A stretch of DNA of 64,000 nucleotides from a plasmid, in the sequence record NZ_CP067423.1. One strand, written 5' to 3'. Every line of letters begins with the position of its first letter. Positions within the stretch are counted from its first letter, which is position 1. Below, one piece after another: positions 4,118-23,544 of this stretch. Position numbers and translations under genes: made by a program. Below the pieces are notes generated by a model that made no database searches, was not told the DNA's origin, and saw only the letters and a program-made list of their open reading frames with translations.

Positions 4118-5347
4118 ATGCTTGAAACCCCTGCCCGCATCGAGCCGCTGTTTTTTGACGACGCGGTGCCGACCGTTCTGGCCGATCTTGCGATCGAGCT
4201 GCAGAAGGCCGCCGATGAACTCGGCCGAGGCCTGCATCCGGAGTCGGCTGACGAATTGGCCGATCTCGTACGAGTCATGAATTCTTACTATTCGAATTTG
4301 ATCGAAGGCCACAACACACGACCTCGAGATATCGAGAGCGCCCTGGCCGGCGCCGAGATAGATCCCGAACGTCGTCCCCTCGCCCTCGAGGCGAAGGCCC
4401 ATGTCGAAGTTCAGAGGATGATTGACGGCTTCGGGTTGCGCGGCGAGCTGCCGAGCCCGACTTCGATCGATTTCATTCGGTGGGTTCATCGCGCCTTCTA
4501 CGACGAGATGCCCGAGGAATTCCGGTTCATCGACAAACCTGATGGCGCCAAGGCCGAGATCCTACCCGGCGAGTTCCGGACGTCCGCGGAACATGATGTC
4601 GCTGTCGGGCGCCATCAGCCGCCATCTTCTGACAGGGTGATAGCTTTCATGGAGTATTTCCAGAAGCGGTTCGCCATGGCCGAAAAGCAGGCCAGCCTGC
4701 GGATCATCGCGATTGCGTCAGCTCATCACCGCCTCAACTACATTCACCCGTTTCCAGACGGCAACGGCCGCGTCAGTCGCTTGATGTCTCACGCCATGGC
4801 GCTCAAGGCCGGTATTGGAGGCAACGGCCTGTGGTCGATATCTCGTGGCCTCGCTCGTGGCCTGAAAGATCGTGGCGAATACAAGCGCATGATGGATCAC
4901 GCCGACAGTCCCAGACAAGGCGATCGTGATGGACGAGGAAATCTTTCGGAATCGGCACTCAAGGATTTCGTCGAATGGTTCCTTACAGTCGCGCTCGACC
5001 AGGTGCGGTTCTCGACCGCAATGTTCGACCTCGGGCGGCTCGATGCTCGCTACCGCGCCCTAATAAAAGATGTCGTCGACGATAAACGAGCACCTGATCT
5101 GGTGGCGGCCGTGTTGCGGCACGGCAGGTTGCCCCGTGGTGAAGCCAATTTCGTGCTGAAAACATCCGAGCGCACGGCACGGAGCACGCTGTCGGATCTT
5201 GTCGAGCGCGGTTTTCTGAAATCTGAAACTCCGAAGGCACCGGTACGTATTGCCTTCCCCCTCGATTTCAGGGAACGGCTGTTTCCGAATCTCTTCACCG
5301 ATGTCGAACCCAATGTCCCGGAACCGCCTTCACTGTCTTTCAGATGA
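4118..5347 (+). CDS. Fic/DOC-family protein (putative AMPylator) with C-terminal winged-helix-like extension
   Basis: Carries the Fic motif HPFPDGNGRVSR (HPFx[D/E]GNGR) within a 409-aa product. Confidence 0.85.
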   Translation: MLETPARIEPLFFDDAVPTVLADLAIELQKAADELGRGLHPESADELADLVRVMNSYYSNLIEGHNTRPRDIESALAGAEIDPERRPLALEAKAHVEVQRMIDGFGLRGELPSPTSIDFIRWVHRAFYDEMPEEFRFIDKPDGAKAEILPGEFRTSAEHDVAVGRHQPPSSDRVIAFMEYFQKRFAMAEKQASLRIIAIASAHHRLNYIHPFPDGNGRVSRLMSHAMALKAGIGGNGLWSISRGLARGLKDRGEYKRMMDHADSPRQGDRDGRGNLSESALKDFVEWFLTVALDQVRFSTAMFDLGRLDARYRALIKDVVDDKRAPDLVAAVLRHGRLPRGEANFVLKTSERTARSTLSDLVERGFLKSETPKAPVRIAFPLDFRERLFPNLFTDVEPNVPEPPSLSFR

Positions 5348-5507
5348 GTGGAATTTCAGGAGTGACAACCGGAATGACTCCGGCCGTCCCCGCTCAGAGA
5401 GTAGAACACTGCCTTCGGTCAGCCGAATATCGACAATGCCGGTCCTATGCTGCTGTGCAAGCCCGTTGTAGCCGCGGCAACAATTGCCGTGATTATGGGC
5501 CCCTGGA

Positions 5508-5768
5508 CTAGAATGTGACCTTGGCAGTGACGGGCGTGTAGCCCCGTCCGACCCTACGGGCGAGCCAGGCCTCGAGCGCTTCGCCGGCTTCAGCGGCCGA
5601 CGCATAGAGGTCAAGGCGTTGTCGGCCGAGCGAGCCGATCCGCCCCCACGCGCGCATAAGCGCCGCATCACCGTACAGTGACGGTTCTATCGCGAGTACA
5701 TAAAACCGCGCAACGTTGCGAGCGCAATCGCGGCGTTGAAGGACAACTTGAAGCTTCGGCTCGACCAT
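5508..5768 (-). CDS. WGR-domain protein (86 aa)
   Basis: WGRIG motif with surrounding small all-domain architecture typical of stand-alone WGR proteins on plasmids. Confidence 0.65.
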   Translation of the reverse strand: MVEPKLQVVLQRRDCARNVARFYVLAIEPSLYGDAALMRAWGRIGSLGRQRLDLYASAAEAGEALEAWLARRVGRGYTPVTAKVTF

Positions 5769-6329
5769 GTCTGATTGTCATCGACTTCCGGTACCCACGT
5801 CCAATTCATTGGCTGAATCGTTTGGGCGTGAGGGATTCACGTCGGTGATAATTGCCTCTCTGACGGGAAAGACGATCGACCGGAGGGTTGTCTAGTTGCT
5901 TCCGTTTCCCGTCGGCCCATGGACTTGTGGCAGCCTGACAAACACGCGTTGGGCAATTTTGAGCCACCACGCTGGGCGCTGCATAGCCGGCTAAGAGTCA
6001 TCTGTTCATGGGTGAAGGTGAGTCGCCCCAAAGGAGCGGCGGTCACGCCCACTCACTCGGTTTGACGCCATCCACCACTGTGAAACTTCTCAGGGTGCTG
6101 CATGGACCGAGCCAGCGGCATGTGGCATTGAAGGTTCTCGCGGATTGACCAACCGCGGAGAAACTAAGCGATTGAAAAATCGATGGAAAATGTACGCGCC
6201 GACGCCGCGATTCCGGACTGTGAGGCTCCGCTGAGTGATCTTGTTGGCGTGGACCTGGGCATGTCGTTAAGGTTTCGTTAACCTAAAATCCCTTGCCAGA
6301 GAACGGGAATCGCTCATACTGGCGCCAGA

Positions 6330-7571
6330 TTGGCCGAAAGGTCGAATATGGCGCTATTTTCTCGTTTGGGGGACAAAGCGGAGATGGCATTTCTCCCAAG
6401 TTTTGAGTTTGACGACAAGATCCTTGCCCAGGGGGCCGAGATCTCGCGCAAGCTCGACCAATTGCGCGTCGAGAAGTTTCCGACCGAGGGGCAGAAGACC
6501 CTTCGGCGGTTCTCGATGGCCGAGGTCGCCCACTATCTTGGTATCAGTCCGAACAATCTGAAGCGCCTCCATCTTGAAAAGAAAGGTCCTGAGCCTTTCG
6601 TCGGTGCCGGCGGACGGCGCTTTTACGCGGCCGAGCAGATGACCGAGCTTCGGGACTATCTCGACAAGCACGGGCGATCGGATTCCAAGAAGTATGTGCC
6701 CTACCGCAAACCTGGCGAGAAGCTGCAGGTCATTGCGGTCGTCAACTTCAAGGGTGGATCGGGAAAGACCACCACCACGGCGCACCTCGCGCAGCATTTG
6801 GCGCTCACCGGTCACCGGGTCCTGACGGTGGATCTCGATCCGCAGGCTTCGCTTTCAGCCCTCCATGGCTTCCAGCCGGAGCTCGACAAGAACCCCTCGC
6901 TCTACGACGCGATCCGGTACGACAACCCCGCCCCGGCCGAAGATGTCATCCGCAAGACGAACTTCCCCTTGCTCGATATCATCCCGGCGAACCTGGAGCT
7001 GCAGGAATATGAGTACGAGACTCCGCTTGCCATGCAGTCTCCGTCTCAGGAAGGAAAGCGGTTCTTCACGAGGGTCGCCCGGGCGTTGGATTCGGTCAGT
7101 GAGCGCTACGACGTCGTGGTCGTCGATTGCCCTCCACAGCTCGGCTATCTGACGCTGTCGGCACTGTCGGCCGCCACCTCGGTTCTGATTACCGTCCACC
7201 CGCAGATGCTGGATCTGATGTCTATGAGTCAGTTTCTGCTGATGCTGGGCAATATCATGAAGTCCATCAAGAATGCTGGCGCGAAGGTCCAGCTGGACTG
7301 GCTGCGCTATCTCATCACCCGATACGAGCCCACGGACATTCCCCAGGCACAGATGGTCGGCTTCATGCAGTCGATGCTTGCCGAGGAAATTCTGAAAAGC
7401 CCAATGCTCAAATCCACGGCGATTTCTGACGCCGGCCTCACCAAGCAGACGCTCTATGAGGTCGAGCGATCGAACTTCAATCGCGATACCTATGATCGGG
7501 CGATCGACAGCATGGATGCCGTGAACTTCGAGATTCAGGGACTGATCCACCAGGCATGGGGGCGGTTGTGA
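6330..7571 (+). CDS. repA: RepA, ParA-family partitioning ATPase of the repABC cassette
   Basis: Deviant Walker A VVNFKGGSGKTTTTAHLA and a long N-terminal extension typical of repABC RepA. First gene of repA-repB-repC in the same orientation. Confidence 0.9.
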   Translation: MAERSNMALFSRLGDKAEMAFLPSFEFDDKILAQGAEISRKLDQLRVEKFPTEGQKTLRRFSMAEVAHYLGISPNNLKRLHLEKKGPEPFVGAGGRRFYAAEQMTELRDYLDKHGRSDSKKYVPYRKPGEKLQVIAVVNFKGGSGKTTTTAHLAQHLALTGHRVLTVDLDPQASLSALHGFQPELDKNPSLYDAIRYDNPAPAEDVIRKTNFPLLDIIPANLELQEYEYETPLAMQSPSQEGKRFFTRVARALDSVSERYDVVVVDCPPQLGYLTLSALSAATSVLITVHPQMLDLMSMSQFLLMLGNIMKSIKNAGAKVQLDWLRYLITRYEPTDIPQAQMVGFMQSMLAEEILKSPMLKSTAISDAGLTKQTLYEVERSNFNRDTYDRAIDSMDAVNFEIQGLIHQAWGRL

Positions 7572-7572
7572 T

Positions 7573-7588
7573 GTTGACTGCCGTCAAA
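7573..7588. promoter_or_regulatory. candidate parS-like centromere dyad (TTGACtgccGTCAA) in the repA-repB spacer
   Basis: Imperfect dyad GTTGACTGCCGTCAAAAC loosely matches the repABC parS consensus GTTNNCNGCNGNNAAC. Some repABC plasmids place parS between repA and repB. Confidence 0.3.
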
Positions 7589-7646
7589 ACCACCAAAAAA
7601 ACCCACGGTTTCAAGCGCATAAGCCGCTTAAGGGGGTGCTAGTCAA

Positions 7647-8657
7647 ATGGCGCGGAAAAATCCCTTTGCCAGCATCATGGACAACGGCGACGCTCCCGCC
7701 GAGCGCCCGGTCGCGCAAGACTACACCTTCAAGGGGGCATCACGCTCGCTCATAAGCTCGATCGACGAAATGGCGGCTCAGGCAGGCAAGCTGCTCGAGG
7801 GCGAGACGATAATCGAGGTTAACCCCGACCTGGTGGACCAATCTTTCGCCAACGACCGGCTCAACGTCGATCAGGAAGATTACGAGGCCGACTACGCTCA
7901 GGTGTTGGAGTCGATCCGTGGTTCCGGCCAGAACTCCCCGGCGCTCCTTCGCCCTCACCCGCAGCGGCCCGGCCGCTACATGCTGGTCTTCGGTCGCCTC
8001 CGCTGGCGCGCCGCAAAAGAGCTTGGTCTCAAGCTTCGCGCTGTCATCAAGGATATCTCCGAGCGCGATCATGTGATCGCCCAGGGACAGGAAAACAACG
8101 CGCGAGCGAACACGTCCTTCATCGAGAAAGCACTGTTTGCCGCCGACATCGTTGAGCGGAAATTCGACGAGGACAACGCCACAGCCCTCGCCGCAATCGG
8201 TGTCGATCGGCCGACGCTTTCAAAGATGCTCTCTGTCGCCTCGATGCCCAAGGAACTTCTCGAGGCGATCGGCCGCGCGAAGGCTGTCGGTCGTGATCGC
8301 TGGTATGAGCTCAAGCTCCTCCTCGACAAGCCGGGCAATCTCGACACTGCCCTGGCTCTGGCATTGAGTTCCGATTGGCATGGGATGCCAAGCGAAGCGC
8401 GGTTCGATGCGGTCGTCACGAAGCTGAAGGCATCCAAGCCGCGCCGCCGTGCCGCGCAGGCGCCATCCAAACGCAACTGGGCGCCGTCTGATGGGCGTAT
8501 CGCCGCGGAGATGGTGGCCAGTGGCAAGAAATTCACCATCGCCCTCAAGGCGAAGGGAACCGACGCAGCAGCGTTCGGTGACTACCTCTCGGAAAATCTC
8601 AGCGAGTTGTATGAGGCTTTCCGTCGGGAAAAACGAGCAACCACGAACGGAGATTGA
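7647..8657 (+). CDS. repB: RepB, ParB-family partitioning protein
   Basis: 336-aa product with ParB-like central region, between repA and repC. Confidence 0.9.
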   Translation: MARKNPFASIMDNGDAPAERPVAQDYTFKGASRSLISSIDEMAAQAGKLLEGETIIEVNPDLVDQSFANDRLNVDQEDYEADYAQVLESIRGSGQNSPALLRPHPQRPGRYMLVFGRLRWRAAKELGLKLRAVIKDISERDHVIAQGQENNARANTSFIEKALFAADIVERKFDEDNATALAAIGVDRPTLSKMLSVASMPKELLEAIGRAKAVGRDRWYELKLLLDKPGNLDTALALALSSDWHGMPSEARFDAVVTKLKASKPRRRAAQAPSKRNWAPSDGRIAAEMVASGKKFTIALKAKGTDAAAFGDYLSENLSELYEAFRREKRATTNGD

Positions 8658-8664
8658 GCGCAAA

Positions 8665-8745
8665 AGAAAAAGGCCCCCGAAACGGCAATTCCGGAAGACC
8701 TTCTCTTTAAGTTTGGCGACTGAGAGAATCCCACTTCCGCGAATC
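8665..8745 (-). ncRNA. predicted counter-transcribed antisense RNA (ctRNA) of repABC in the repB-repC spacer
   Basis: 166-bp repB-repC spacer. On the minus strand a GC hairpin (cggaattgccgtttcgggggcc) is followed by a T-run (tttttctttt), giving a rho-independent terminator pointing toward repB, as expected for the repABC ctRNA. Confidence 0.45.
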
Positions 8746-8823
8746 ATAGTCAAGACCATTCAGGTCGGTTTGAGCGCCGATTCGGCGAGCAGGTTTCTTT
8801 TGCCTAGCAATAGGTGAAGGACA

Positions 8824-10140
8824 ATGCAGACGCATACCCCAACGACGCCCTTTGGGCGGCGAACGATGTCACTTGGCATGATGGCAAGCCAGGCTGTGGC
8901 AAAATCGGCACCGGCTGGCGCCCAGGTCCAGAAATGGAAAGTGTTCCAGACGATCCGGGAAGCGCGCGAGCTGATCGGCGCTACGGACCGCGCACTCGCC
9001 ATTCTCAACGCGCTGCTCTCGTTTCATCCGGAAACGGAGCTCACAGGCGACGGCGAACTGATCGTCTGGCCGTCCAACGAGCAACTCATGGCCCGTGCGA
9101 ACGGAATGCCGGCGACGACGCTACGGCGCCACCTGGCCGTCCTGGTCGACTGCGGGCTGATCATCCGCAGAGATAGTCCGAACGGCAAGCGCTTCGCCCG
9201 CAAGGGCAGGGGAGGTCAAGTCGAACAGGCCTACGGGTTCGACCTGGCGCCGATCGTTGCCCGGGCCGGGGAATTCAAGGAGCTGGCGGACACCGTCCGG
9301 GCCGAGAAGAACGCCCTTCGGATCGCCAAGGAGCGTCTCACGCTCCTGCGCCGCGATATCGTCAAGCTCATCGAGACTGGCATCGAGGAGAACGTTCCGG
9401 GCAATTGGGGCAGGGTCTACCAGACCTATCAGGCCATCGTCTGCCGCTTGCCGCGCTCAGCGCCGAGGCAACTCATCGAGGATATCTGCTGCGATCTTCA
9501 CGGCCTCTACACGGAGATCCTCGAGGTATTGGAATCATTTGCAAAAACACAGAATCCGGACGCCAATGAGTCCCATTCTGGTCGCCACATACAGAATTCA
9601 AACCCAGACTCCATATTTGAATCTGAAGACCGCTCTCGAAATAAGAATGAAGCGGGCGGCAGCGCCGCGGAAACCGACAACGTACGGAGCTTGCCGAAGC
9701 GAGAATTGCCTTTGGGCATTGTGCTGGACGCCTGCCCCAACCTGCGAGAATTGACGCAAGGCGGGGAAATCCGTCACTGGCGCGACTTTCTGGCCGCGGC
9801 GGAACTGGCCCGGCCGATGCTGGCAATCAGTCCCAGCGCGTGGCGGGACGCCTGCGAGGTCATGGGCGAACAGCACGCGGCGATCACCCTTGCCGCGATC
9901 TACCAGCGATCAGACCAGATCAACAGCGCCGGCGGCTATCTGCGCAGCCTGACCGACAAGGCAAGGGACGGCAAATTCTCGACCTGGCCAATGATCATGG
10001 CACTGCTGCGCGCCAAGCTGGACGCCGACAAATCGGCGGAGAAAACCGGCCACGAACCGCGAAGCGGCGGTGAAAGCGGGGAAGGGCGGCTCGAAGTCTC
10101 GGAAGCCCTTCTGCGGTCGCTGAACAAGCCCAGATCGTGA
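8824..10140 (+). CDS. repC: RepC replication initiator
   Basis: 438-aa product beginning MQTHTPTTPFGRR, in canonical position after repB. Confidence 0.9.
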   Translation: MQTHTPTTPFGRRTMSLGMMASQAVAKSAPAGAQVQKWKVFQTIREARELIGATDRALAILNALLSFHPETELTGDGELIVWPSNEQLMARANGMPATTLRRHLAVLVDCGLIIRRDSPNGKRFARKGRGGQVEQAYGFDLAPIVARAGEFKELADTVRAEKNALRIAKERLTLLRRDIVKLIETGIEENVPGNWGRVYQTYQAIVCRLPRSAPRQLIEDICCDLHGLYTEILEVLESFAKTQNPDANESHSGRHIQNSNPDSIFESEDRSRNKNEAGGSAAETDNVRSLPKRELPLGIVLDACPNLRELTQGGEIRHWRDFLAAAELARPMLAISPSAWRDACEVMGEQHAAITLAAIYQRSDQINSAGGYLRSLTDKARDGKFSTWPMIMALLRAKLDADKSAEKTGHEPRSGGESGEGRLEVSEALLRSLNKPRS

Positions 10141-10384
10141 TGATTGATAGATTTGAATTCCGCGGGCGGCAACTCGGTCAGTCTCTGTCGTCGTCGATCA
10201 GACCGTCAAAAGTTTCGAGCAGTGCATCGATGATCGATTGGCCAAGGGCATTTGCAGCTTCGCCCATCCGGGCATCGTCTCCGCACCGCGCCGCAGAAGC
10301 GAGCTCCGAACCCTGCTCGGTCAGGATCGACTTGGTTCGCTCGATGGCCCATTGGGCGAAATCGTCGCGGCTGTTGACGGACGT

Positions 10385-11490
10385 TGGTGCAGAAATCAGG
10401 ATGGGGCCGGATTACCCCCTTTCCCGCGGCGGTCAGGCGATCCGGCGGGACACCGGCATGCCGAGGCCGGTCATGATGTTGATGACCTTACATCCGGCGG
10501 TTGCCTCGACCTTCTGGGCAGGCAGACTCCGACCCCGCAGGCTGCGGCCAATCAGGGCCTTGTACCGAAACACCGCCACTTCGACCAAGGATCTTTTCCC
10601 GTAGCCGACGGCCCGCTGCCATCCCAGCCGACCACGCTCCTCGATCAGCTGGATGTGGCGGTCGCGCTGGGTCGGCTCGGTGTCCGCCGCGGCGCTCGGC
10701 ACCGCGGTCGAGCGGGGCGGGATGACCACGGCGGCGTCGGGAGTGTGCCCGGCGACGGAGCGGTAGACCGGCTCCCCATCGTATGCGCCGTCGGCGAACA
10801 CCGCGGAGATCGGGCGGTCGATCTGATCGAGCAGCGGGCCGACCCGCGACGCGTCGCCCTCGTCCATGGTGGTCAGCTCCGAGGCGAGGATCTCGCCGCT
10901 GTCGGGATCGATCGCCAAGTGGAGCTTGCGCCAGGTCCGTCGCGGCTTGCCGCCGTGTTTCTCGTGCAGCCACTCGCCGGCCCCGAACACCTTCAGGCCG
11001 GTGCTGTCGATCACCACGGTCACCGATCCGTTCGCCCGTTTCAGCGCCGCCGCGATCCCCAGGTCGACGCCGCGGCGCGAGAAGGTCGTATGGTCCGGGA
11101 CCGGCAGCTCCAGGCCGAGCAGCCCCATGACCGACTTCAGCATGCCTTCGGTCTGACGCCATGGACGACCAAAGGCCAGGCGCAACATCAGCCCGGCCTC
11201 GATGGCGATGTCCGAATAGCTTCGCGGCCGGCCGCGTTTGCCTGACCGGGCCGGTGTCCAGGCCGCGAGCGCCTCGGGCGTCACCCAGACCGTCAGGCTG
11301 CCCCGTCGCTGAAGTGCGGCATCATACTCGGCCCAGTTGTCAATCTTGTAGCGCGCCTTCGGGATCTTGTGGCGGCGGGGTTCGTTCGCCTTGTAGGGCA
11401 TGCAAATCTCGAGGGGCGACAGGCGGGCGGCCCCTATACGCGACCTGACTCCCGGACGCCAGCTCGATCACCATTTTCGCACCAATGTCC
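10385..11490 (-). mobile_element. IS5-family (IS903-group) insertion sequence, ~1.1 kb
   Basis: Imperfect terminal inverted repeats GGACGTTGGTGCAGAAAT (10385-) and GGACATTGGTGCGAAAAT (reverse complement of ..11490) flank a single transposase ORF. No 9-bp target duplication was found. Confidence 0.7.
10433..11401 (-). CDS. DDE transposase, IS5 family (IS903-like)
   Basis: N-terminus MPYKANEPRRHKIPKARYKIDNWAEYDAALQRRGSLTVWVTPEALAAW parallels the IS903 transposase (RYRISNWSEYN..LINRGSLTFW). 322 aa in one frame. Confidence 0.85.
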   Translation of the reverse strand: MPYKANEPRRHKIPKARYKIDNWAEYDAALQRRGSLTVWVTPEALAAWTPARSGKRGRPRSYSDIAIEAGLMLRLAFGRPWRQTEGMLKSVMGLLGLELPVPDHTTFSRRGVDLGIAAALKRANGSVTVVIDSTGLKVFGAGEWLHEKHGGKPRRTWRKLHLAIDPDSGEILASELTTMDEGDASRVGPLLDQIDRPISAVFADGAYDGEPVYRSVAGHTPDAAVVIPPRSTAVPSAAADTEPTQRDRHIQLIEERGRLGWQRAVGYGKRSLVEVAVFRYKALIGRSLRGRSLPAQKVEATAGCKVINIMTGLGMPVSRRIA

Positions 11491-12394: not shown

Positions 12395-13027
12395 TCAGTT
12401 GGAAGCGTGCTCACGCTCTTCTACCACGCGTTTCTCGTCTTCTGTTCCGTTAAGAGCTTCAAGCGCTCGATCGATATCCTCCAAGCGTTTTAGCAGTTTG
12501 ATGCGCTCCAGCTTAAGCTGATGACGTTGTGCTTCTAAATCAATAGGCTGCGGAGCACGGACGCGTCGTTTGAATTGCAGAATATCCTCTCGCCGCATCT
12601 CTGGCTGTATTATGCCTTCTTTCAGCGCTTGAACACGTTCCTCTGAAGTTAGAGTCGTAATTTGGTAACACGTCTCCGAAGCATTGGGCAGTAAGTTTAA
12701 CGGCAGTTCTTCAGCTTCGATAAACCGAGCTACACTCATCAGCTTATTAGCGGACTGGTGGCTAAATGGCAGGTCGGATGCTACCATCGCCATAAACTCG
12801 CCGTGCTGCAGCCTGTCCTTCGCGGCAAGTAGGTAGCGCCCGATGAGTAGAAAGCTTTCTTGACTTTCCGTCCAAGCACGTCGAATTTCCGCAGCAAATT
12901 CCTCGCGTGCGAGGAGTTTAGCTGGATCGCGTGGAGGTGTGAGACGTGGTGCCAGTATGCCAATTGGGGCGAGGATCTCTCCGGCGTCCTCAGTCGTCAT
13001 GATACGCGGCGTTTGTTTCCTAGCCAT
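12395..13027 (-). CDS. hypothetical protein, possible partition partner (ParB role) of the adjacent small ParA
   Basis: 210-aa ORF overlapping the parA stop by 8 bp in the same operon, with a C-terminal coiled-coil region. Assignment is by position only. Confidence 0.4.
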   Translation of the reverse strand: MARKQTPRIMTTEDAGEILAPIGILAPRLTPPRDPAKLLAREEFAAEIRRAWTESQESFLLIGRYLLAAKDRLQHGEFMAMVASDLPFSHQSANKLMSVARFIEAEELPLNLLPNASETCYQITTLTSEERVQALKEGIIQPEMRREDILQFKRRVRAPQPIDLEAQRHQLKLERIKLLKRLEDIDRALEALNGTEDEKRVVEEREHASN

Positions 13028-13652
13028 GGATCATAGCCTCTACCGCCTGGGCCAACTCGGCGAAATCGTTGCGAACTGCAGCATCGTCCAATGGCATCCC
13101 GAAGAACGAGTAGTTCTGATAAGCTGCGCGAAGCGGCACCTCAGCGCTGAGCAACGGCACTTTGAACGCAGCAAGTTGCTCGCGAGCGAACCCTGCGGCT
13201 TGAGTTCGCTTATTAACCTGCATCAGCACAGCAGCCGCTGGGATCATGATATTAGGCTTATATCGTTGTGCCTGCCGTTCTGCGGTGGTGACATGCTGAT
13301 ACGTCCGTGCTGCTTCGATAGCATCTTTCTGGTCAGGTCGGGCTGGAATTAGAACGGCGCTTGCTACCCCGATAGCGTAGACTAGTCCGCGCGCTAGTGC
13401 TCCGGCGACGTCAATAACAACCACCTCAGAACGCTGTTCAGCCTCAGACGCAGCATCGACGAGGTCATCTTCGTCTACGACAGTCCATGGAATGGGTGAT
13501 TTCGCTCCCTTGAGCCACTGACTCAAGTTGCGATTGGGATCGACATCCAGAACCTCTACGGATTTTCCCGTTCGGTGCCAATGATCTGCCAGACACAGTG
13601 TCAGAGTGGTTTTTCCTGGGCCACCCTTGGTGGAAGCAACCGTAATGATCAT
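13020..13652 (-). CDS. parA: small ParA/Soj-family partition ATPase (type Ib)
   Basis: N-terminal MIITVASTKGGPGKTT deviant Walker A in a 210-aa product. It diverges from the iteron origin region. Confidence 0.85.
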   Translation of the reverse strand: MIITVASTKGGPGKTTLTLCLADHWHRTGKSVEVLDVDPNRNLSQWLKGAKSPIPWTVVDEDDLVDAASEAEQRSEVVVIDVAGALARGLVYAIGVASAVLIPARPDQKDAIEAARTYQHVTTAERQAQRYKPNIMIPAAAVLMQVNKRTQAAGFAREQLAAFKVPLLSAEVPLRAAYQNYSFFGMPLDDAAVRNDFAELAQAVEAMIHG

Positions 13653-13769
13653 GTCCTAAACTTCCGCGCCTGATTCCTATGCCACCCTGCGTCTCTCACC
13701 ATTGAGTGTCAAGCGTTGGGAGCTGATAAGAACGATGATAGTTATCTAGTTCAGCGGTTAAACGGCTAC

Positions 13770-14190
13770 GCCGTTACGGAGCCGAATCAATTTTCAAAAT
13801 CAATATCTTATACCTAATTGCGTGGATCAAATGACGAAGGCTTGTGGAGCAAACGACGAGTCTCTGTGGATGTCATGCCTAATTGATGTGGATCAAATGA
13901 CGAGTTGAGGTGAGCGTCGCGACATCCTCCTTTCTAACGTGGATCAAATGACGACATCGCGACTGTGGATAAGTGGCTAGTCTGGATTGGAATGTGGATC
14001 AAATGACGAGGAGCGTGGGTCTGCTGACGAGAAACGTGGATGTAATGACGAGCCACCTTGGTGTGGGCAGCCTCCGAAGACCCGACAAACCCAAAAAGTT
14101 CGTCATTTGATCCACATCGTTACGTTTATCCGTGCCGCTTGGGAGGGCTAGAGGCATGATGGTAGATGTTGGAGACAGTTATCGTCATTA
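13770..14190. repeat. iteron-type replication origin (oriV): AT-rich tract, 16-bp iterons GTGGATCAAATGACGA on a 21-22-bp period, two inverted copies near the rep start
   Basis: Exact direct copies at 13822, 13888, 13939 and 13994. Variants at 13844, 13866 and 14036. Inverted copies at ~14100 and ~14172. AT-rich aatcaattttcaaaatcaatatc at 13775-13815. Confidence 0.8.
13964..13972 (-). promoter_or_regulatory. perfect DnaA box (TTATCCACA on minus strand) inside the iteron array
   Basis: Plus strand reads tgtggataa, an exact reverse complement of the DnaA box consensus. Confidence 0.5.
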
Positions 14191-14211
14191 CGTCCACATC
14201 ATTGGTGCCCC

Positions 14212-15144
14212 ATGCAGCCTGACCAGCTTGCCCTTCAGCTAGACAGCCCACTTATGGGCAAGGCAAAGAATGATCGCAATTTGATGGTTTACGCGTGGTT
14301 CGGCTTGAACCGTGAAAAGCAAACTGAGCTTCCGATCTACGACGATGGAAAAGTTCGCATCGAAGTTACCGGTACGAAGCATGGGATCGCTAATATCTGG
14401 GATGCTGAGCTGCTTATTTATCTAGCTTCGATCATTCAGGAACGTATCAACCTTGGTGTAGTACCTGAGCCATTGGTGAGTTTCGCTGCACATGATTTCT
14501 TCCGTATCACTGAGACGAAGCCGGGCGGCAGTTCCTATGACCGGCTTGAGGAAGCCTTGGCACGATTGCGAGGCACGCTGATCCGCACCAACATCGAGAC
14601 GGGAGGCGAAGGAGAGTCGGAAGGTTTCGGTTGGATCGACAGCTATAAGATCCAGTACCGTCGCGGCCGCGATGGCGAGAAGATCATGAAGGCCGTACAA
14701 GTCAGGATTTGCGATTGGCTATTCCGTGCCATCGTTAAGGATCGGCGCATGCTGACCTATGATCCACGATACTTCAAGTTAGCGCCGCTTGAGAAGCGGC
14801 TCTATGAAATCGCCCGAGCGCACTGCGGCAACCAAAATGGTTTTAAGATCAACCTGCTGAAGCTTCACCGCCGGATCGGTACGGCGATGGAGCCACGGTT
14901 CTTTAAGGCGCAACTGGTAAAGATGGCAAAGCGGAAAAACCCGCTACCCGAGTATGGCTTTATGCTGGTCGACCCACGCGTCAAGTTGTCGGTGGATAAA
15001 AAAGCGTTGCCGCCACCCGGCCGCACTCCGCTCAAATCATGGATGGTGTTTTTTTTCAGAACTGATCGCCTCTCGAGTATGCCTCCGTTTGCTACAGCGC
15101 CAGAGGTTGAGGACGACTTCCCTGTATCGGAACTGCCAAGCTAA
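14212..15144 (+). CDS. plasmid replication initiator protein (RPA / replication initiator protein A family-like)
   Basis: 310-aa ORF immediately downstream of the iterons. The motif GIANIWDAELLIYLASII resembles the conserved IWDADxLIW motif of alpha-proteobacterial iteron Rep proteins. Divergent from parA. Confidence 0.7.
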   Translation: MQPDQLALQLDSPLMGKAKNDRNLMVYAWFGLNREKQTELPIYDDGKVRIEVTGTKHGIANIWDAELLIYLASIIQERINLGVVPEPLVSFAAHDFFRITETKPGGSSYDRLEEALARLRGTLIRTNIETGGEGESEGFGWIDSYKIQYRRGRDGEKIMKAVQVRICDWLFRAIVKDRRMLTYDPRYFKLAPLEKRLYEIARAHCGNQNGFKINLLKLHRRIGTAMEPRFFKAQLVKMAKRKNPLPEYGFMLVDPRVKLSVDKKALPPPGRTPLKSWMVFFFRTDRLSSMPPFATAPEVEDDFPVSELPS

Positions 15145-17428: not shown

Positions 17429-18562
17429 TTACGTCTCCGGAAAAGGAATATCACTATTTATCTGAATTCGATAGATAGCGCCGGATCTCATCGTCAGTAC
17501 CGGCGGTCTCATTAATTCCCGGTTAACGTATTCACCGCCGACGCCTCGGATGCCCTGAGTGCCGACATTTACCGCGACACCGGCCGGCCCCTCGATCAAT
17601 CCACCCAAGGCGCCGACGAACGACAGCGCTCCCTCGATCAGGATGCCGGTGGCGATGCCGCTCCAGGGGTAGTCGCTCTCCGCCTCGACGCCGCTGGCGC
17701 CGTCCTGGCCGAGCGCCGGCGAACATGCCATCGGCATGATTCCACCCCCCAGCAGGTCGACCCGGGTGGCACACATCTGGACCCTCAGGTCGCCTCGGCT
17801 GACGCCGGTGGCGTTCAGCTCGGTCATGACGGTGCTGCCGGCGGGGATGGCCAGGCACTCCTCGACCTGACCGTTGCCCAGGAAAATCCGTCCAAAGGCG
17901 TCCTCGATGATGATGCCGCGCACCTGGCCGGGCAACTCGGTGCGAACCGGGTTCGGGTTCTGGATCACCAACTCCTCGCCCGCCTTCAGGATGCAGCCGG
18001 TCAGTTCGGGCTGCAGGCTGTGCGGGTGATAAAGGCCCTGGCCACTGCGACCACCGCCCCGAGTGTAGAAGTCAGACTTGGCGTTGCCGCCCTCGCCACC
18101 TGTCCCGGCTGCCACAGGTGTCGCTGCGACATCTCCGCTCCCCTGGGCCATGCTGCTACCGCCCAACAGCGGGTTCATCACGGCGCCCATGTGCTTGTTG
18201 TCGAACGCCAGAACCGACACCTTGAAGTTCCTGACCGGCTGCTTGCGTGGCACTTCGCTTCTCCGCTCCTGCCGGTGTCCGGGAGGCGGCGCTTGCTCGC
18301 CTGTTTCCGGTGGCGGTGTCTCGGCAACTTGCGGCCTGGGTTCGGGCGCCCGCGCGCTGATGGCCGCCGGCTCTAGACCCTTGGGCTCCTCGCGTTCCGA
18401 CTCGGTCGTGATCCCGGCCACGCCGTAGAGCATGGCGAGGACCGCAACGACGGAGGTTCCACCCAACAGCAGGGTCCGCTTGTTGAAGCGCCCGCTGTAT
18501 TCGCGGACAGGCTCCTCGATGCCATCCTCTCCGGGATGACGCTCCTTGTCGTAGCTTCTCAT
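17429..18562 (-). CDS. trbI: T4SS-2 VirB10/TrbI-like protein
   Basis: N-terminal TM (LLLGGTSVVAVLAMLYGVAG), Pro-rich linker (PEPRPQVAETPPPETGEQAPPP), and a C-terminal Gly-rich beta-barrel region. Position follows the trbG-like gene. Confidence 0.75.
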   Translation of the reverse strand: MRSYDKERHPGEDGIEEPVREYSGRFNKRTLLLGGTSVVAVLAMLYGVAGITTESEREEPKGLEPAAISARAPEPRPQVAETPPPETGEQAPPPGHRQERRSEVPRKQPVRNFKVSVLAFDNKHMGAVMNPLLGGSSMAQGSGDVAATPVAAGTGGEGGNAKSDFYTRGGGRSGQGLYHPHSLQPELTGCILKAGEELVIQNPNPVRTELPGQVRGIIIEDAFGRIFLGNGQVEECLAIPAGSTVMTELNATGVSRGDLRVQMCATRVDLLGGGIMPMACSPALGQDGASGVEAESDYPWSGIATGILIEGALSFVGALGGLIEGPAGVAVNVGTQGIRGVGGEYVNRELMRPPVLTMRSGAIYRIQINSDIPFPET

Positions 18563-19563
18563 CGTTCTCTCCGAACGGTCATGACGAGGTCACCGCGCAC
18601 GAACCGGACCTCTCCGGGCAGGCCGCGGATGACGTAGTGGCGAGAGGTGGGGTCGATCCAGAATGAGGGAGCCGATCCCCTGGGCAGGAACGGGACCGGC
18701 CGGCTGGATAGCCGGGCGGGCGGCAGGATGTAGGTATTGACGCCATCGTTGTAGGCCGACCACTCGCCGGGCAGGAATTCTGCAGGGCCGTGATAGACGT
18801 ACCGGGTATCCGAGACGGCGGTCGCGTCAGGCCTATGCACCGTAGCGGCTGTCACCCTCGGTTGATCGGACCCGTAGGTATGCTGGACGACCGGATGATA
18901 TGCTGCGTGGCACTTGCGGGGAGCGGCGTCCTCGGCCGGCTTACAGGACGGAACTACGAGATCGTAGAGGTACACCCTGCTGCCGGTAGCGATGGACAGC
19001 GATGTCCGCTCACCCTGTTTGTAGGCCTTGACGGTGACGATCAACCGGGCGCTGGCGGACTTCCTGTTGTTGGCCCGTTCCCGTTTGGCTCGCATGGACG
19101 TACCGTCGACGCCCCCGGCGGTCACCTCAACCATGAACCACTGCGGGTTTCCCAAGATAGCCTCCGGCGTGGCCTCGCCCGGCTCCAAGTAGAAGAGGGT
19201 CACATCGCTGTCGGTTTCCCCGTCGGCAGATGGGCCGTCCATGATAACCTGCTGTCGGACACCGTTCTGGAACGGGCAGGTCATGATTGATCCCTCGAAG
19301 CTGCAGTCCAGGGCGGTGCGCCGGGACCTCTTGACCATGGCCGCAGTCTTGGCGGCTGGCGACGTGAACTTCTTTTCCGGTTTGGCGGGCCCGGTCGCCA
19401 CACCACCAAAAGGCACGGGCACCTGCAGCGTGCCCGGCCCGGGAGGCTGAACCTCCTGGGCCTGGAGGTAGTCGTAAGTCAGTGACGGAGCATCACCCGA
19501 TGGACCGCCTGCGCAGCCCGCCAACACCACCCCCGCAACCGACATCAGCAGAAACTTACACAT
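18559..19563 (-). CDS. trbG: T4SS-2 VirB9/TrbG-like lipoprotein
   Basis: Lipoprotein signal MCKFLLMSVAGVVLAGC in a 334-aa product. Sits between the trbF-like and trbI-like genes and overlaps the trbI-like start by 4 bp. Confidence 0.7.
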   Translation of the reverse strand: MCKFLLMSVAGVVLAGCAGGPSGDAPSLTYDYLQAQEVQPPGPGTLQVPVPFGGVATGPAKPEKKFTSPAAKTAAMVKRSRRTALDCSFEGSIMTCPFQNGVRQQVIMDGPSADGETDSDVTLFYLEPGEATPEAILGNPQWFMVEVTAGGVDGTSMRAKRERANNRKSASARLIVTVKAYKQGERTSLSIATGSRVYLYDLVVPSCKPAEDAAPRKCHAAYHPVVQHTYGSDQPRVTAATVHRPDATAVSDTRYVYHGPAEFLPGEWSAYNDGVNTYILPPARLSSRPVPFLPRGSAPSFWIDPTSRHYVIRGLPGEVRFVRGDLVMTVRRER

Positions 19564-19628
19564 TTCCAGCCGTCCTCAATCGCGATTTATGGGCTGTATT
19601 ATATCCCATAAACAACCTCAGTTGAGCC

Positions 19629-20321
19629 TCACTCGGTGCCCAGGATTTCATAGTCGGTGATCAGGATGCCCATCGGGTTACAGTCCCGGATCTCGGCCGA
19701 GACGTTGGGGAACCGCTGCACCCGGAACTCCGCCGACTTCGGCACCACGGTCCTGCGCATGCCGTCGTCGAACGTCTCCGACCAAGCCGCGCTGATCCAC
19801 ATGCCCTCGGTGTTGCTGCGCTCGCCAGGGCGGCGCCCCACCCGCACATCTTTCTCCGACAGGATGCGCTTCTGGCCGCGGCGCACCATCTCGACGCCGG
19901 CAGATCGTTCGAACGACCGGTTGGCCTTGGTCGCGGCCGGGCCGGTGACGGAGCAGTACAGGGTGTCAATCATCTCCTGCACCTGGGCCGAGGAGTCGAT
20001 CCGACGCAGCCTGTAGACCAGGCGCTTGACCTCGGCGCGGGCCGCTGCCTCGAACTCATCAGCCTTCAGGTCGCCGGCCCTGATCACCTTGAGGGACGTG
20101 AAGTCGCTGTCGAGCAGAGCGGCGAACACTTCCGGCGGCGCCGCCGCGATCTGTTCGCGCTTGTAGACCTGAAAGCCGTTCAGCCCCAGGCTTGCCGCCA
20201 GGGCGAGGACCAGGGCGCGCAAGGCGCCCCGCTGCTGCTGGGCGAGCCATCCCGGGCGGAACGGCTTGGTTTGCTCGACGGTCGGCTCTGGCTGGGTGCG
20301 GCGCATGCGGATCTTGTCAAA
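19629..20321 (-). CDS. trbF: T4SS-2 VirB8/TrbF-like protein
   Basis: True start MFDKIRMRR (ATG at 20321; upstream ORF-track extension is Arg/His-rich junk). Short cytoplasmic N-terminus, one TM (ALRALVLALAASLGLNGF), then a periplasmic domain. Position after the trbL-like gene. Confidence 0.6.
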   Translation of the reverse strand, partial: FDKIRMRRTQPEPTVEQTKPFRPGWLAQQQRGALRALVLALAASLGLNGFQVYKREQIAAAPPEVFAALLDSDFTSLKVIRAGDLKADEFEAAARAEVKRLVYRLRRIDSSAQVQEMIDTLYCSVTGPAATKANRSFERSAGVEMVRRGQKRILSEKDVRVGRRPGERSNTEGMWISAAWSETFDDGMRRTVVPKSAEFRVQRFPNVSAEIRDCNPMGILITDYEILGTE

Positions 20322-20326
20322 CATTC

Positions 20327-21367
20327 TTATACTCTCCTGGATTGGCCGGCTGCGGCCTTGGCGACGCGGGACCAGTACTGGCTCTGAGCTGCGGCCGATG
20401 CCGTCGTCCTGGCGCCGCTGGCCACCCGTTGGGCGCCCTGGCCGATGCCGCGCCAGGTGCTCGTCATGTGCGTGACCTCGCGCTGCGCCAGGGAGCGCCC
20501 GCGCTCGACCATCGCCCCGGTGCCAGTGACGGACCTTGCGACGTTGCCGATGCCCCGGGTGATGGCCTGGGATGACAGCTGCGGCACGGCACTGATGATG
20601 CCGGCGGAAAGCGTTCGGGACTGCCAGGCCAGCCACGCGATGAACACGGCGAGCAGCACCGCCGGGATGATGTCGTCGAAGACCGGCGTTGGCGGCAGGT
20701 CCATCAGCTCGAATGCCCGCGAACCGATGCCGGCGACCATGGCGATGATGACCAGCTTGACCAGGTTGTTCAGCCAACCCTGGATCGCGCCCTCGGCCAT
20801 GTTCTTCGTGAACGGCGTCACGGCCATCGGCGTGAACAGCAGCATGAACAGGCCGTTGGTCTTATAGCCGATCGCCGTGGTCGCCATCTCGAACACCAGG
20901 AAGGCGAATGCCACGTAGATGAACAACGCCGCCAATTCCAGCATAAGCCTGTCGTCCAGGGTTTTGCCGCATTCGATCCACCCGGAGCACAGGGCCTGCT
21001 TCGTGGCCAGGATCTTGTCGGCCTGACCATCGCCGATGCCCCAGAGGGCGGATGGTGTGAACAGGTCCGCGGTCGCGCCATCGGCACCGACGATCCCGCC
21101 ACCGAGTGCCAGCGCGAAGTTGCCGGCAGCGTCGACGATTTCCTTGGCCGACCAGGCGATGGCCAGGAACAGCCAGAAGATCACGAACATCCCGATCAGG
21201 TCGCCGATGATGTTGTCCATGGCACCGGCCAGCCAGGCGAAGGCCAGCCGGGTGACGGCCCATCCGAACGCCAGGGCGAAGGTCGCCAGCACCACCGGCA
21301 TGATCAGCTCGAAGCCGGCGTCCAGGATGCCTAGGACCATGAAGAAAACTTCATCGACGACGCTCAT
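20327..21367 (-). CDS. trbL: T4SS-2 VirB6/TrbL-like polytopic membrane protein
   Basis: True start MSVVDEVFFMVLGILDAG (ATG at 21367). Five or more hydrophobic helices and a Gly/Ala/Gln-rich C-terminal tail as in TrbL. Confidence 0.75.
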   Translation of the reverse strand: MSVVDEVFFMVLGILDAGFELIMPVVLATFALAFGWAVTRLAFAWLAGAMDNIIGDLIGMFVIFWLFLAIAWSAKEIVDAAGNFALALGGGIVGADGATADLFTPSALWGIGDGQADKILATKQALCSGWIECGKTLDDRLMLELAALFIYVAFAFLVFEMATTAIGYKTNGLFMLLFTPMAVTPFTKNMAEGAIQGWLNNLVKLVIIAMVAGIGSRAFELMDLPPTPVFDDIIPAVLLAVFIAWLAWQSRTLSAGIISAVPQLSSQAITRGIGNVARSVTGTGAMVERGRSLAQREVTHMTSTWRGIGQGAQRVASGARTTASAAAQSQYWSRVAKAAAGQSRRV

Positions 21368-21591
21368 GGCGGATGCTTCTGGGTCAGGGTTTTCGGGTCC
21401 ACCTTGCGCTGGCCGCATTCGGGACAGTCGCCGAGGCCGCGGTACAGCCGATCGATCTTCTCCTGCGCCTGCTGTTCCTGGCGCCTGATTTCTTCCTGCA
21501 TGATCCGTAGCTCCTCGGCCGCAGGGTCGGGGTGCGGGGCGGGGCACAGCACGGTCAGGCCGATGCCGAGCAGGATTGCGCAGATGTCCAT
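21364..21591 (-). CDS. small secreted/lipoprotein-like protein in the trbK (entry-exclusion) slot
   Basis: 75 aa with signal-like MDICAILLGIGLTVLC followed by a charged coiled segment. Sits between the trbJ-like and trbL-like genes with overlapping stop/start. Confidence 0.4.
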   Translation of the reverse strand: MDICAILLGIGLTVLCPAPHPDPAAEELRIMQEEIRRQEQQAQEKIDRLYRGLGDCPECGQRKVDPKTLTQKHPP

Positions 21592-21600
21592 GTCGTCACC

Positions 21601-23544
21601 TCACTGGAAAAGAGCGCGACCGGTAGGAGTGCGGGGCTCAAGGGATCCCGGCCCATAGAGGCGCCGGACCTTCTGGTCCGCGATGATCTCCTGGACGCGC
21701 TGCTCCTCGGTCGTCCGGAGCATCGCCGTCGCCATCGCCGCATCACCGGCCTGCCTGGCGGCATCAACAGCGATCTGGGTGCGCAGCATCTGGGTCTGCG
21801 CCTGGATAGCCTGAGTCTGGCCGACTGCTCCCTGACTCAGCCCCAGGACCTCGTCAGACATGTCGAGAGCAGCATCGATGCTGGCCTGGGCCGCTGCCTG
21901 GGTGCGGGCAGCCTCGCGCGTGGCGTCGCTGGTCCTGGTGCGGACCTCGTCCATGTGCAGTCCGGCATCCTCGAAGGTCCAGCTTTCGGGCATGCCCTCC
22001 TGGTAGCGTTCCTGCATCACACCATCAGCATCGACTCCATAGAGATCGGGATCAATGCTGCCCAGCTGACGCCGGGCTGCCTCTTCGACGGTCGAGGCAC
22101 CGGCTGCGGCACTGGCACCAAGCCTCTGCGTCATCTTTCGCTGTTCGGCGAGCTGGCGCTGCTGGGCGGCGAGTTGCTTGCCCAGGCACAGGTTGCCGGC
22201 AATCGCGGTCATCTGCTGGGCGATCTGCGCCGTCAGCGTCGCCCGACCGCCCGAGAAAATCCCGCTGACCACCGATGCGGCGCCGCCGATCATCGCGCCG
22301 CCGATGTTGCACTTCACGGTCTCGACAGCGCTGTCGACGTAGTCCTCGATCGGCTGCAGCACGGTATCGACGGCGTCGCCGATGGTGTTGTTGACCGCGC
22401 TGGTCACCTGGCCAGTGGCCCGGTTGATGATCCGGTTGCCCTCACGCACGATGATGCCGCCGGAGACCAGGTCGTTCAGCCGGCGCACAGCACCGGCCTC
22501 GCCCCGTTCCACCGCCCGCCAGAACTGGTCGTCCGTGTTGTAGAAGTTGTCCGCCAAGCCGTCGACGTTGCGTTCAAACTGGCTATCCGTGCTGCCGTCC
22601 CAGGCCGAGGCTCCGGTGCCGCCGGCCACCCGGTTGTTTTCGATGGTGTTGTTCCGGCTGGTGATCGAGCCCGGCATATGGCTGTTCTGGCCGTTGCTGA
22701 TACCACCGCTGATGTTGTTGCCCTCGATGCGGTTGTTCTCGGCCGAGACCACCCGCACGTCGCCCCGGATGTCGTTGCCGGTGACGACGCTGTTCTCCGC
22801 CTCGTTATCCTGGAACTCGTCGGGGAACTGGTCCATCCGATTCAGCCGGCTGTTACCGTAGCCACCGACCGACACCGCCGTGTCGGCATCAATGTCGATG
22901 GTGTTGTTCACCAGCTGCACGCCGTCGCTGCCGGCCTTCCAGGTGATGCCTGCGAATCCGGCCTTGCCTTTGATCGTATTCCCTTCGTATCGGACGTTCC
23001 TGACCGAGACGTTGTCGATGGCCTCCTGGCGCCAGTGGCCGTCGATCGTATTGCCGGCCACCAGGACGGACTGCTGGTCGGTCGGGCTCATGTTGAACAG
23101 TTTGAAGCCGTCCTGCCCTTCGCCGGTAATCAGGTTGTTGGTGACCTTGAGGTTACCGATGTTCCCGTAAGACCCCCACAGCTTGAAGCCGCCGACGTCA
23201 CCGCCGCTTGGTGCGTCGGCGATCACGTGGAAACCGTCGATCTCCACGTTGGTGATGCGGTTGGCCTGCACGGCGGCCTGGTTGCGGCTGCCCCGGATCA
23301 CCGCGGCACCTTTGCCGTCGACAGAGAAGATTCGAATGGGTGCGCCCGGATCGCCGTGCAGGTTGCTCAGGTCCAGGCTGCCGTTATAGGTGCCGCTGTA
23401 GACGGCGACGGTGTCGCCCGCCCTGGCCGAACGGATCTTGGCCTCCAGGTTGTCTCCCGGCCTGACCTCGATCGTGGCAGCCAGCGCCGGTGTGCCGAGC
23501 ACCGTTCCCGCAAGCAACATCCCCGCGAAAACTCCTCGCCACAT
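21601..23544 (-). CDS. 647-aa secreted fusion protein: N-terminal right-handed parallel beta-helix (PbH1-type repeats) + C-terminal TrbJ/VirB5-like helical domain
   Basis: Start MWRGVFAGMLLAGTVLGTPALA (signal peptide). Repeated NNxI/GNxI turns (VTNNLITGEG, VAGNTIDGH, YEGNTIKGK, LVNNTIDID, IEGNNISGG, SRNNTIENNRVAGG). C-terminal ~270 aa are Q/A-rich helical. Occupies the trbJ slot between trbE and trbK/trbL. Confidence 0.7.
   Translation of the reverse strand: MWRGVFAGMLLAGTVLGTPALAATIEVRPGDNLEAKIRSARAGDTVAVYSGTYNGSLDLSNLHGDPGAPIRIFSVDGKGAAVIRGSRNQAAVQANRITNVEIDGFHVIADAPSGGDVGGFKLWGSYGNIGNLKVTNNLITGEGQDGFKLFNMSPTDQQSVLVAGNTIDGHWRQEAIDNVSVRNVRYEGNTIKGKAGFAGITWKAGSDGVQLVNNTIDIDADTAVSVGGYGNSRLNRMDQFPDEFQDNEAENSVVTGNDIRGDVRVVSAENNRIEGNNISGGISNGQNSHMPGSITSRNNTIENNRVAGGTGASAWDGSTDSQFERNVDGLADNFYNTDDQFWRAVERGEAGAVRRLNDLVSGGIIVREGNRIINRATGQVTSAVNNTIGDAVDTVLQPIEDYVDSAVETVKCNIGGAMIGGAASVVSGIFSGGRATLTAQIAQQMTAIAGNLCLGKQLAAQQRQLAEQRKMTQRLGASAAAGASTVEEAARRQLGSIDPDLYGVDADGVMQERYQEGMPESWTFEDAGLHMDEVRTRTSDATREAARTQAAAQASIDAALDMSDEVLGLSQGAVGQTQAIQAQTQMLRTQIAVDAARQAGDAAMATAMLRTTEEQRVQEIIADQKVRRLYGPGSLEPRTPTGRALFQ

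Follow-up and report, generated by a model that had tools for sequence, protein, structure and literature searches.

A probable iteron-type replication origin upstream of a PF10134 initiator gene in a plasmid region of Skermanella-like descent

Features of the locus

The subject of this work is a short intergenic region in a plasmid (sequence record NZ_CP067423.1), located between a partition ATPase gene, parA, and a divergently oriented gene, rep, which encodes a 310-aa replication initiator. A stretch of 64 kb was analyzed, and this whole stretch is referred to below as the window. Immediately upstream of rep, the window contains a set of 16-bp repeats, a DnaA box, and an AT-rich tract (Table 1), and the region is probably the vegetative origin (oriV) of an iteron-controlled replicon.

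The region 13500–14500 was read directly and was analyzed with two repeat finders (one of them TRF) and with pattern searches allowing mismatches. For comparison, nine close relatives of the locus were used, namely Skermanella aerolata KACC 11604, whose Rep is 92% identical to that of the window, and eight metagenome contigs (80–95%). Together with the window they make up the ten loci mentioned throughout the text, which represent about six lineages; their 570-bp upstream regions were aligned. Individual related loci, close and distant, are designated by L numbers where they need to be distinguished.

The 16-mer GTGGATCAAATGACGA occurs four times as an exact copy in direct orientation on the plus strand and once as an exact copy in inverted orientation. 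Five degenerate copies accompany them, and all ten copies are located within 13822–14197 (376 bp). When up to three mismatches are allowed, ten matches to the 16-mer are found in the window against 0.45 expected, a number that was reached in none of 100 shuffled sequences, and eight of these ten matches are inside 13822–14197. The degenerate consensus GTGGRYSWAANGRCGA, with up to one mismatch, gives nine matches in the window against 0.18 expected. The repeats are highly non-random and clustered.

The starts of the direct iterons are separated by 22, 22, 22, 51, 55, 21, and 21 bp. TRF reports two arrays, one with a period of 22 bp and 4.1 copies at 13822–13912, and the other with a period of 21 bp and 2.8 copies at 13994–14052; the solitary iteron 5 and the DnaA box are located between them. 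Iteron 3 is a weak copy, yet it follows the phasing, and in the alignment of the close relatives all of them keep a site there. Against a threshold of at least three phased direct repeats next to rep, eight direct copies are present here, and they end 160 bp upstream of the gene. When helical phasing was calculated for the whole array, the best resultant (R = 0.83) was obtained at 10.6 bp/turn, and the fit was poor at 10.4 or 11.0 bp/turn. These values do not demonstrate that all sites share one face of the helix.

An earlier note on this DNA, made from its letters without database searches, had placed exact copies of the 16-mer at 13822, 13888, 13939, and 13994, and the pattern search recovered all four. 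The degenerate copies that it listed at 13844, 13866, and 14036 are present as well, although the one at 13866 is weak, and the copy at 14015 was missed. The 21–22-bp register described there holds within the two sub-arrays but does not extend across the whole array, in which gaps of 51 and 55 bp occur. The repeat-finder and phasing analyses that the note had proposed thus indicate non-random, clustered repeats with phasing confined to the sub-arrays. As for the two inverted copies, the exact one at 14100–14115 was placed correctly, whereas the second is located at 14182–14197 and not at 14172–14187, which is 10 bp too far to the left.

The DnaA box is the sole perfect one in the window. Taken alone, this is weak evidence, as 10 of 100 shuffled sequences carry at least one such box. 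Across the entire window, only one 30-mer duplex is less stable than that at 13790–13819, and the AT-rich tract around the latter (about 13785–13820), to judge by its composition, is a probable DNA-unwinding element. The tract includes a match to the consensus of the integration host factor (IHF), a match of a kind that 37 of 100 shuffled sequences hold at least once somewhere; its core A.CA.....TTA is invariant in all ten loci.

Table 1. Coordinates of the origin features and of neighboring genes in the window. Mismatches are counted against the 16-mer GTGGATCAAATGACGA.
Feature	Position	Strand	Description
rep	14212–15144	+	310-aa replication initiator; Pfam RPA "Replication initiator protein A" (PF10134)
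Iteron 1	13822–13837	+	exact
Iteron 2	13844–13859	+	2 mismatches
Iteron 3	13866–13881	+	degenerate, 11 of 16 bases (5 mismatches); within the 22-bp register
Iteron 4	13888–13903	+	exact
Iteron 5	13939–13954	+	exact, solitary
Iteron 6	13994–14009	+	exact
Iteron 7	14015–14030	+	GTGGGTCTGCTGACGA; degenerate, 4 mismatches
Iteron 8	14036–14051	+	2 mismatches
Inverted iteron IR1	14100–14115	−	exact
Inverted iteron IR2	14182–14197	−	TCGTCATTACGTCCAC; 3 mismatches; 15 bp ahead of the rep start codon
DnaA box	13964–13972	−, opposite to rep	TTATCCACA; perfect match
AT-rich tract	13780–13821		probable DNA-unwinding element; GC 0.38; AT-rich in 10/10 loci
IHF-consensus match	13798–13810	+	AATCAATATCTTA (WATCAANNNNTTR); only match in the window
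Left-edge conserved block	13741–13779		GTTAT..GTTC..GTTAAACGGCTACGCCGTTACGG; 39 bp
Palindrome remnant	13910–13929		GTGAGCGTCGCGACATCCTC; 20 bp, in phase with iterons 1–4
Conserved blocks between IR1 and IR2	14129–14160	+	TCCGTGCCGC (14129–14138), GGCATGAT (14153–14160)
parA (partition ATPase)	13020–13652	−	divergent from rep; syntenic in L006, L008, L009, L012
DUF3102 protein gene	12395–13027	−	downstream of parA; syntenic in L006, L008, L012
repABC operon	6330–10140		complete: RepA/ParA-type ATPase, RepB, RepC

The initiator and its control region

The Rep protein matches PF10134 with E = 6e-55 and a score of 186.7 bits, the gathering cut-off being 27. A fold model was built with ColabFold/AF2 on 106 homologues (pLDDT 85, pTM 0.83) and contains two successive winged-helix-like modules. 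A Foldseek search of the PDB with this model gave significant matches only to domains 2–3 of RctB (E = 3e-11, TM about 0.6) and to the complex of Pi with its iteron (E = 7e-4). Many homologues of Rep also have weak precomputed matches to Rep_3 (PF01051) and TrfA (PF07042). Its predicted fold places Rep among the iteron-binding initiators with a double winged helix. No family was assigned to it by an NCBIfam scan, and a sequence search against the PDB returned only spurious matches to designed repeat proteins.

The inverted copies IR1 and IR2 are full-length sites that are located 82 bp apart, flank the region upstream of rep, and are conserved in all ten loci; in the L009, L011, and L012 loci, the ATG codon of rep directly abuts IR2. 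The conserved blocks TCCGTGCCGC and GGCATGAT between the inverted copies are candidate elements of the rep promoter, and when −35 and −10 boxes were placed by hand on these blocks, no convincing promoter was obtained. From this arrangement, autorepression of Rep via IR1 and IR2 appears plausible.

The idea that a leader peptide or an extended Rep begins at a conserved upstream ATG (14156) was rejected, because the frame relation of this ATG to rep varies among the loci and the Shine–Dalgarno-like GGAGG is not conserved. A search of Rfam at a permissive threshold gave no match in 13400–14500 and no known antisense or regulatory RNA.

Conservation in related loci

The upstream regions of the close relatives are overall only 58–78% identical to that of the window. 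All eight direct and two inverted repeat positions are nevertheless retained in the ten loci, as are their spacing and the AT-rich tract. Alignment gaps amount to no more than one column through the direct array and to one or two columns from IR1 to IR2. The mean column conservation is 0.89 at the repeat positions versus 0.72 in the rest of the region, and the share of invariant columns is 56% versus 21% (Mann–Whitney p = 4e-16). The sites conform to the consensus GTGG-R-Y-S-W-A-A-N-G-R-CGA, in which the ends are invariant and the center varies. The GATC sequence found inside the iteron of the window is not conserved in the relatives.

When the module and the intergenic region were compared with PLSDB in the near and distant modes, no DNA match was found except for 65 bases, which adjoin an IS110-family transposase gene (IS, insertion sequence) and are similar to Skermanella plasmids. 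The closest plasmid Reps in PLSDB (54–57% identical) belong to Roseomonas marmotae, Pseudoroseomonas cervicalis, and two plasmids of Indioceanicola profundi; for the PLSDB plasmid Reps of Roseomonas, Pseudoroseomonas, Indioceanicola, and Azospirillum as a whole, the level of identity is 42–57%. Relatives with a Rep identity of about 56% (L001–L004) carry direct repeats of their own, 16–18 bp long and in a 22-bp register, directly upstream of rep, and they have inverted copies near the rep start. The sequences of these repeats differ, and all of them end with ACGA(G).

Co-variation of the repeats and the initiator

Three of the close relatives differ from the others in the right half of the site, which reads AGGGCGA in L009 and L012 and ACGGCGA in L011 versus ATGACGA in the group of the window. 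This change is observed at seven of the ten repeat positions, both inverted copies among them; the other three positions also differ but are degenerate. The Rep proteins of the same three loci are mosaics. Identity to the Rep of the window is 70–71% over their N-terminal 170 aa; over the C-terminal 140 aa, identity to both the window and L007 reaches 89–96%. All 24 substitutions that separate the groups are located within residues 1–168, and they include helices 93–100 and 106–121 and the beta-hairpin 142–166 of the first winged-helix module.

Repeats and initiator thus co-vary, as in replicon-specific recognition, in one branch comprising three loci. Most of the sites change in step with the initiator, as would be expected of iterons. 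The position of the substitutions suggests that the N-terminal winged-helix module would read the right half of the site (A-N-G-R-CGA) and the C-terminal module the left half (GTGGA). Separately, the rep gene of L011 has an in-frame stop at about codon 150, which makes it either a pseudogene or the result of a sequencing error.

A model of the origin

The nine relatives keep the repeats with their spacing, the DnaA box, and the AT-rich tract at the same positions while the spacers drift, and this supports the reading of 13741–14211 as the oriV of an iteron-controlled theta replicon whose initiator is the PF10134 Rep encoded at 14212–15144. We estimate the probability of this reading at about 0.9. 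The earlier note had also taken the region for an oriV, and the family and fold of the initiator, the conserved positions, the co-variation, the distant relatives with the same layout, and the precedent in Azospirillum (see below) all argue in its favor. Its other statements were mostly confirmed. The sequence tgtggataa at 13964–13972 is indeed a perfect minus-strand DnaA box, the only one in the window, the array is preceded by an AT-rich stretch (GC 0.38, with the second least stable 30-mer), and the open reading frame of rep starts at 14212. The note further saw a classic arrangement for Rep autorepression; here, the inverted copies near the rep start were found, but neither a palindromic operator nor a sigma-70 promoter was located.

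The mechanism proposed below is based on the anatomy of the region and on what has been established for iteron plasmids such as pSC101, pPS10, F, R6K, and RK2. Rep monomers would occupy the eight direct 16-bp sites, that is, the four-copy array with a 22-bp period, the solitary site, and the three-copy array with a 21-bp period, and the DnaA protein of the host would bind its box at 13964–13972 within the array. An IHF-like protein may bend the DNA at 13798–13810. The Rep–DnaA complex, together with this IHF-type bend, would then open the AT-rich tract (about 13785–13820), and the helicase of the host would be loaded at the melted tract. Through the inverted sites between the array and the rep start, Rep could limit its own expression, and the same sites may pair with other sets of iterons (handcuffing), which would limit the copy number.

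Several points weigh against this reading. Binding of Rep to the iterons, firing of the origin, the site of melting, and autorepression are all things that we infer from the anatomy. A scan of 13600–14300 for sigma-70 promoters and terminators found none, including between the inverted copies, and these copies are unlike the palindromic operator typical of pPS10, F, and pSC101. The assignment of Rep domains to half-sites probably goes back to one recombination event, as L009 and L012 on the one hand and L011 on the other share the divergent N-terminal half of Rep at 93% identity. The block at 13741–13779, the sequence GTCGCGAC, and GAGTCT are strongly conserved, yet they play no role in the oriV model. 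Finally, a repABC replicon is located 4 kb away and bears on the question of whether the iteron origin drives the molecule.

The origin is very probably an ordinary iteron oriV of a kind already described; what is new is the sequence of the iteron and the Skermanella-type lineage without a DNA match in PLSDB. The reading annotates the replication origin and the incompatibility determinants of this plasmid lineage. The region 13741–15144 (about 1.4 kb) is a candidate minimal replicon and a possible vector backbone for Rhodospirillales. General knowledge of plasmid replication is unchanged by it, and only the hint of a split-domain reading of the iteron and the conserved blocks without an assigned factor go slightly beyond the textbook.

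Alternative explanations and the plasmid context

The window contains two replication modules, which are located 4 kb apart and are separated by IS5-family and IS110-family transposase genes. It is conceivable that the iteron region descends from an oriV but is inactive in this molecule, being a passenger from an IS-mediated cointegration in a plasmid that replicates via the repABC operon. We consider this unlikely. The repABC operon upstream is complete, the parA–oriV–rep module is flanked by the IS5-family and IS110-family transposase genes, and its GC content is about 0.54 versus about 0.65 in the surroundings, all of which would fit a passenger. However, the rep open reading frame has its full length and is 92–95% identical to those of relatives, and there is no sign of decay, with four direct repeats and one inverted repeat exact and the DnaA box perfect.

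In addition, the repABC segment may belong to another natural molecule. Bases 1–10380 of the window, which include trbB, Fic, and repABC, are 100.0% identical to plasmids of Aminobacter sp. (pMDW3, NyZ550, and SR38). This identity ends abruptly at 10380, about 50 bp before the IS5-family transposase gene (10433–11401), and beyond this point the window shows patchy similarity (72–93%) to Skermanella plasmids. No terminal inverted repeats of an IS were found at the junction. The junction is either that of an inter-order cointegrate or that of an assembly or concatenation chimera; a real junction would mean a cointegrate across orders, formed from an Aminobacter repABC replicon and a Skermanella-type iteron replicon.

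Another explanation concerns the DnaA box only, which might be a half-iteron (GTGGAT plus a flank) bound by one domain of Rep and not a site for DnaA. The sequence TGTGGATAA does start with GTGGAT, as the iteron does, and three iterons read TGATCCACA, which is one mismatch off the DnaA box. Comparison of the loci makes this explanation rather improbable. The TAA following GTGGAT is invariant in all ten loci, whereas iteron positions 6–8 vary freely, and the box remains TGTGGATAA in L009, L011, and L012, although GTGGACGAA or GTGGATGAA is found in the iterons there. Nine of the ten loci have an identical box, and the sole variant (L008, TTATACACA) still fits TTWTNCACA, the change being at its one degenerate position. 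Since the box is kept to its consensus while iteron positions 6–8 vary, it appears to be under a constraint of its own. Minus-strand DnaA boxes are also present within the arrays of two of the four distant relatives, L001 and L002, whose iterons have unrelated sequences, as well as in the oriVs of Azospirillum (bioRxiv 10.64898/2026.09.14.751567).

As a separate observation, TGATCCACA is read on one strand by the iterons at 13887–13895, 13993–14001, and 14108–14116, in each case one mismatch from the DnaA-box consensus. With up to one mismatch, nine matches to the DnaA box are found in the window, four of them inside this origin. The likeness of the three iterons to a DnaA box is probably incidental, since it is not kept in the relatives.

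It is very improbable that the repeats are a centromere or operator of the parA–DUF3102 module, bound by a partition adaptor and not by Rep. From its neighborhood, the DUF3102 protein is likely the partner of ParA, and the array is situated between parA and rep, in keeping with type Ib partition loci, which often have repeat arrays upstream of parA. In L009 and L012, moreover, ParA (47% identity) and the DUF3102 protein (40%) also diverge alongside the repeat change. Nevertheless, L007 and L010 keep the ATGACGA-type repeats, their spacing, and the inverted copies, although the parA gene there is unrelated (29%) and has the other orientation. The same probably applies to L005 and L013, whose upstream sequence aligns with that of L007 and L010; in L005, an IS256-type transposase is encoded upstream, and the repeats are kept. 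In L001–L004, analogous arrays are located immediately ahead of rep, with no divergent parA next to them. The inverted copies of the window are at the rep start, about 450–540 bp from parA, and it is with the N-terminal half of Rep that the repeats change. Thus, the repeats are kept where the partition module has been replaced, that is, they follow rep and not the partition genes; the tracking of partition genes that partition repeats would show was not observed.

That the repeats cluster by chance, or that they are what is left of an unrelated array (satellite or CRISPR-like), is a generic possibility only and can be dismissed, given that none of the 100 shuffles reaches the observed count, that the positions are conserved and most copies change together across the ten loci, and that Rfam gives no match.

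Comparison with known replicons

Replicons of Azospirillum encode candidate RepA proteins with PF10134 and TrfA profiles; their oriVs, located upstream of repA, contain at least three clustered iterons of 14–18 nt along with scattered ones, a single DnaA box that points the other way from repA, and RepA boxes that are remote and inverted (bioRxiv 10.64898/2026.09.14.751567). A plasmid of A. brasilense (Vande Broek et al. 2000), going by its citation in that preprint, belongs among the PF10134 iteron replicons as well. The locus described here resembles these replicons of Azospirillum and other Rhodospirillales in the initiator family and in the position of the oriV directly upstream of the initiator gene. 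Of the features by which the preprint defines an oriV, sites of 16 nt, a minus-strand DnaA box with a plus-strand rep, and two inverted copies are found here. The divergent parA–DUF3102 module and the lineage-specific 39-bp block are not described in the preprint. The locus also has its own iteron sequence, no plasmid Rep in PLSDB is more than 57% identical to its Rep, and the lineage is Skermanella-like.

The classical iteron plasmids are pSC101, pPS10, F (ori2), R6K (gamma ori), and RK2, and Konieczny and co-authors are said to have reviewed them in 2014. The origin described here shares with them tandem repeats spaced by about two helical turns (putative Rep-binding sites in our case), a double winged-helix Rep (predicted in our case), a DnaA box, an IHF-type site, an AT-rich element for unwinding (probable in our case), and, close to the start of rep, inverted sequences related to the iterons. 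The order of the elements, from the AT-rich tract with the IHF-type site through the iterons and the inverted repeats to rep, resembles that of pSC101 and pPS10. Several differences can also be noted. The Rep protein belongs to PF10134 and not to Rep_3 or TrfA, the DnaA box is located inside the iteron array and not beyond the AT-rich tract, and the iterons fall into groups of four, one, and three. Instead of the half-site palindrome of the classical plasmids, the inverted copies form a pair of full-length sites at a distance of 82 bp.

The origin of Vibrio cholerae chromosome 2 (ori2), with its initiator RctB, is similar in that RctB domains 2–3 are the best structural match to the Rep model and in that it is an iteron-type origin with a DnaA box. 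RctB is a much larger multi-domain protein, and its solved fragment alone (residues 155–483) is longer than the 310-aa Rep, which aligns with domains 2–3 only. The ori2 region contains Dam-methylated 11/12-mers and 39-mers, whereas the GATC of the iteron is not conserved in our case. A second class of long repeats, such as that in ori2, was not found by the repeat finder.

Other conserved blocks

Homology among the ten loci starts at the block 13741–13779, which is almost invariant and forms the left border of the conserved module around rep. The block contains the palindrome AACGGC-TAC-GCCGTT, which is unique in the window, and the sequence GGCTACGCCGTTACG, which is exact in eight of the nine close relatives. 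It is retained in loci with a different partition module and is absent from the relatives with a Rep identity of about 56%. A hairpin at the palindrome was considered and set aside, as its folding energy in single-stranded DNA is not unusual (z = −0.75).

At the position equivalent to the palindrome remnant, the relatives have GTGGACGTCGCGACATCCAC, which consists of two inverted left halves of the iteron around the invariant GTCGCGAC. In the window, GTCGCGAC is found at 13916–13923, and the arms of the palindrome are degenerate (GTGAGC...ATCCTC). Judging by this structure, the palindrome is possibly a site for a Rep dimer.

Two GANTC sites, which is the CcrM methylation motif in alphaproteobacteria, are invariant in the ten loci, namely GAATC at 13784–13788, inside the AT-rich tract, and GAGTC at 13858–13862. 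The GAGTCT located between iterons 2 and 3 is the sole invariant spacer. Enrichment in CcrM sites is unconvincing, with 2 sites per 470 bp versus 1.7 per kb overall.

A broader reading can be put forward, which we regard as doubtful, this judgment applying jointly to all of its parts, the cointegrate included. The mosaic Rep proteins would be the product of a natural domain swap, in step with a change that is confined to the right half of the iterons. The two parts of the iteron would be read by the first and second winged-helix modules (WH1 and WH2), the palindrome of left halves (GTGGAC-GTCGCGAC-ATCCAC) would be a dimer site for WH2 only, and the 39-bp block would bind a host factor. If this is true, incompatibility specificity could re-assort through recombination inside rep.

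Conjugation genes

Type IV secretion and conjugation genes form two sets in the window, at 17429–30186 and 58696–62278. One set includes genes for TrbI/VirB10-like and CagX/VirB9-like proteins, a VirB11-like ATPase, and a coupling protein, and a second CagX-like gene is located near 58.7 kb. The predicted products of these genes indicate the context of a conjugative plasmid.

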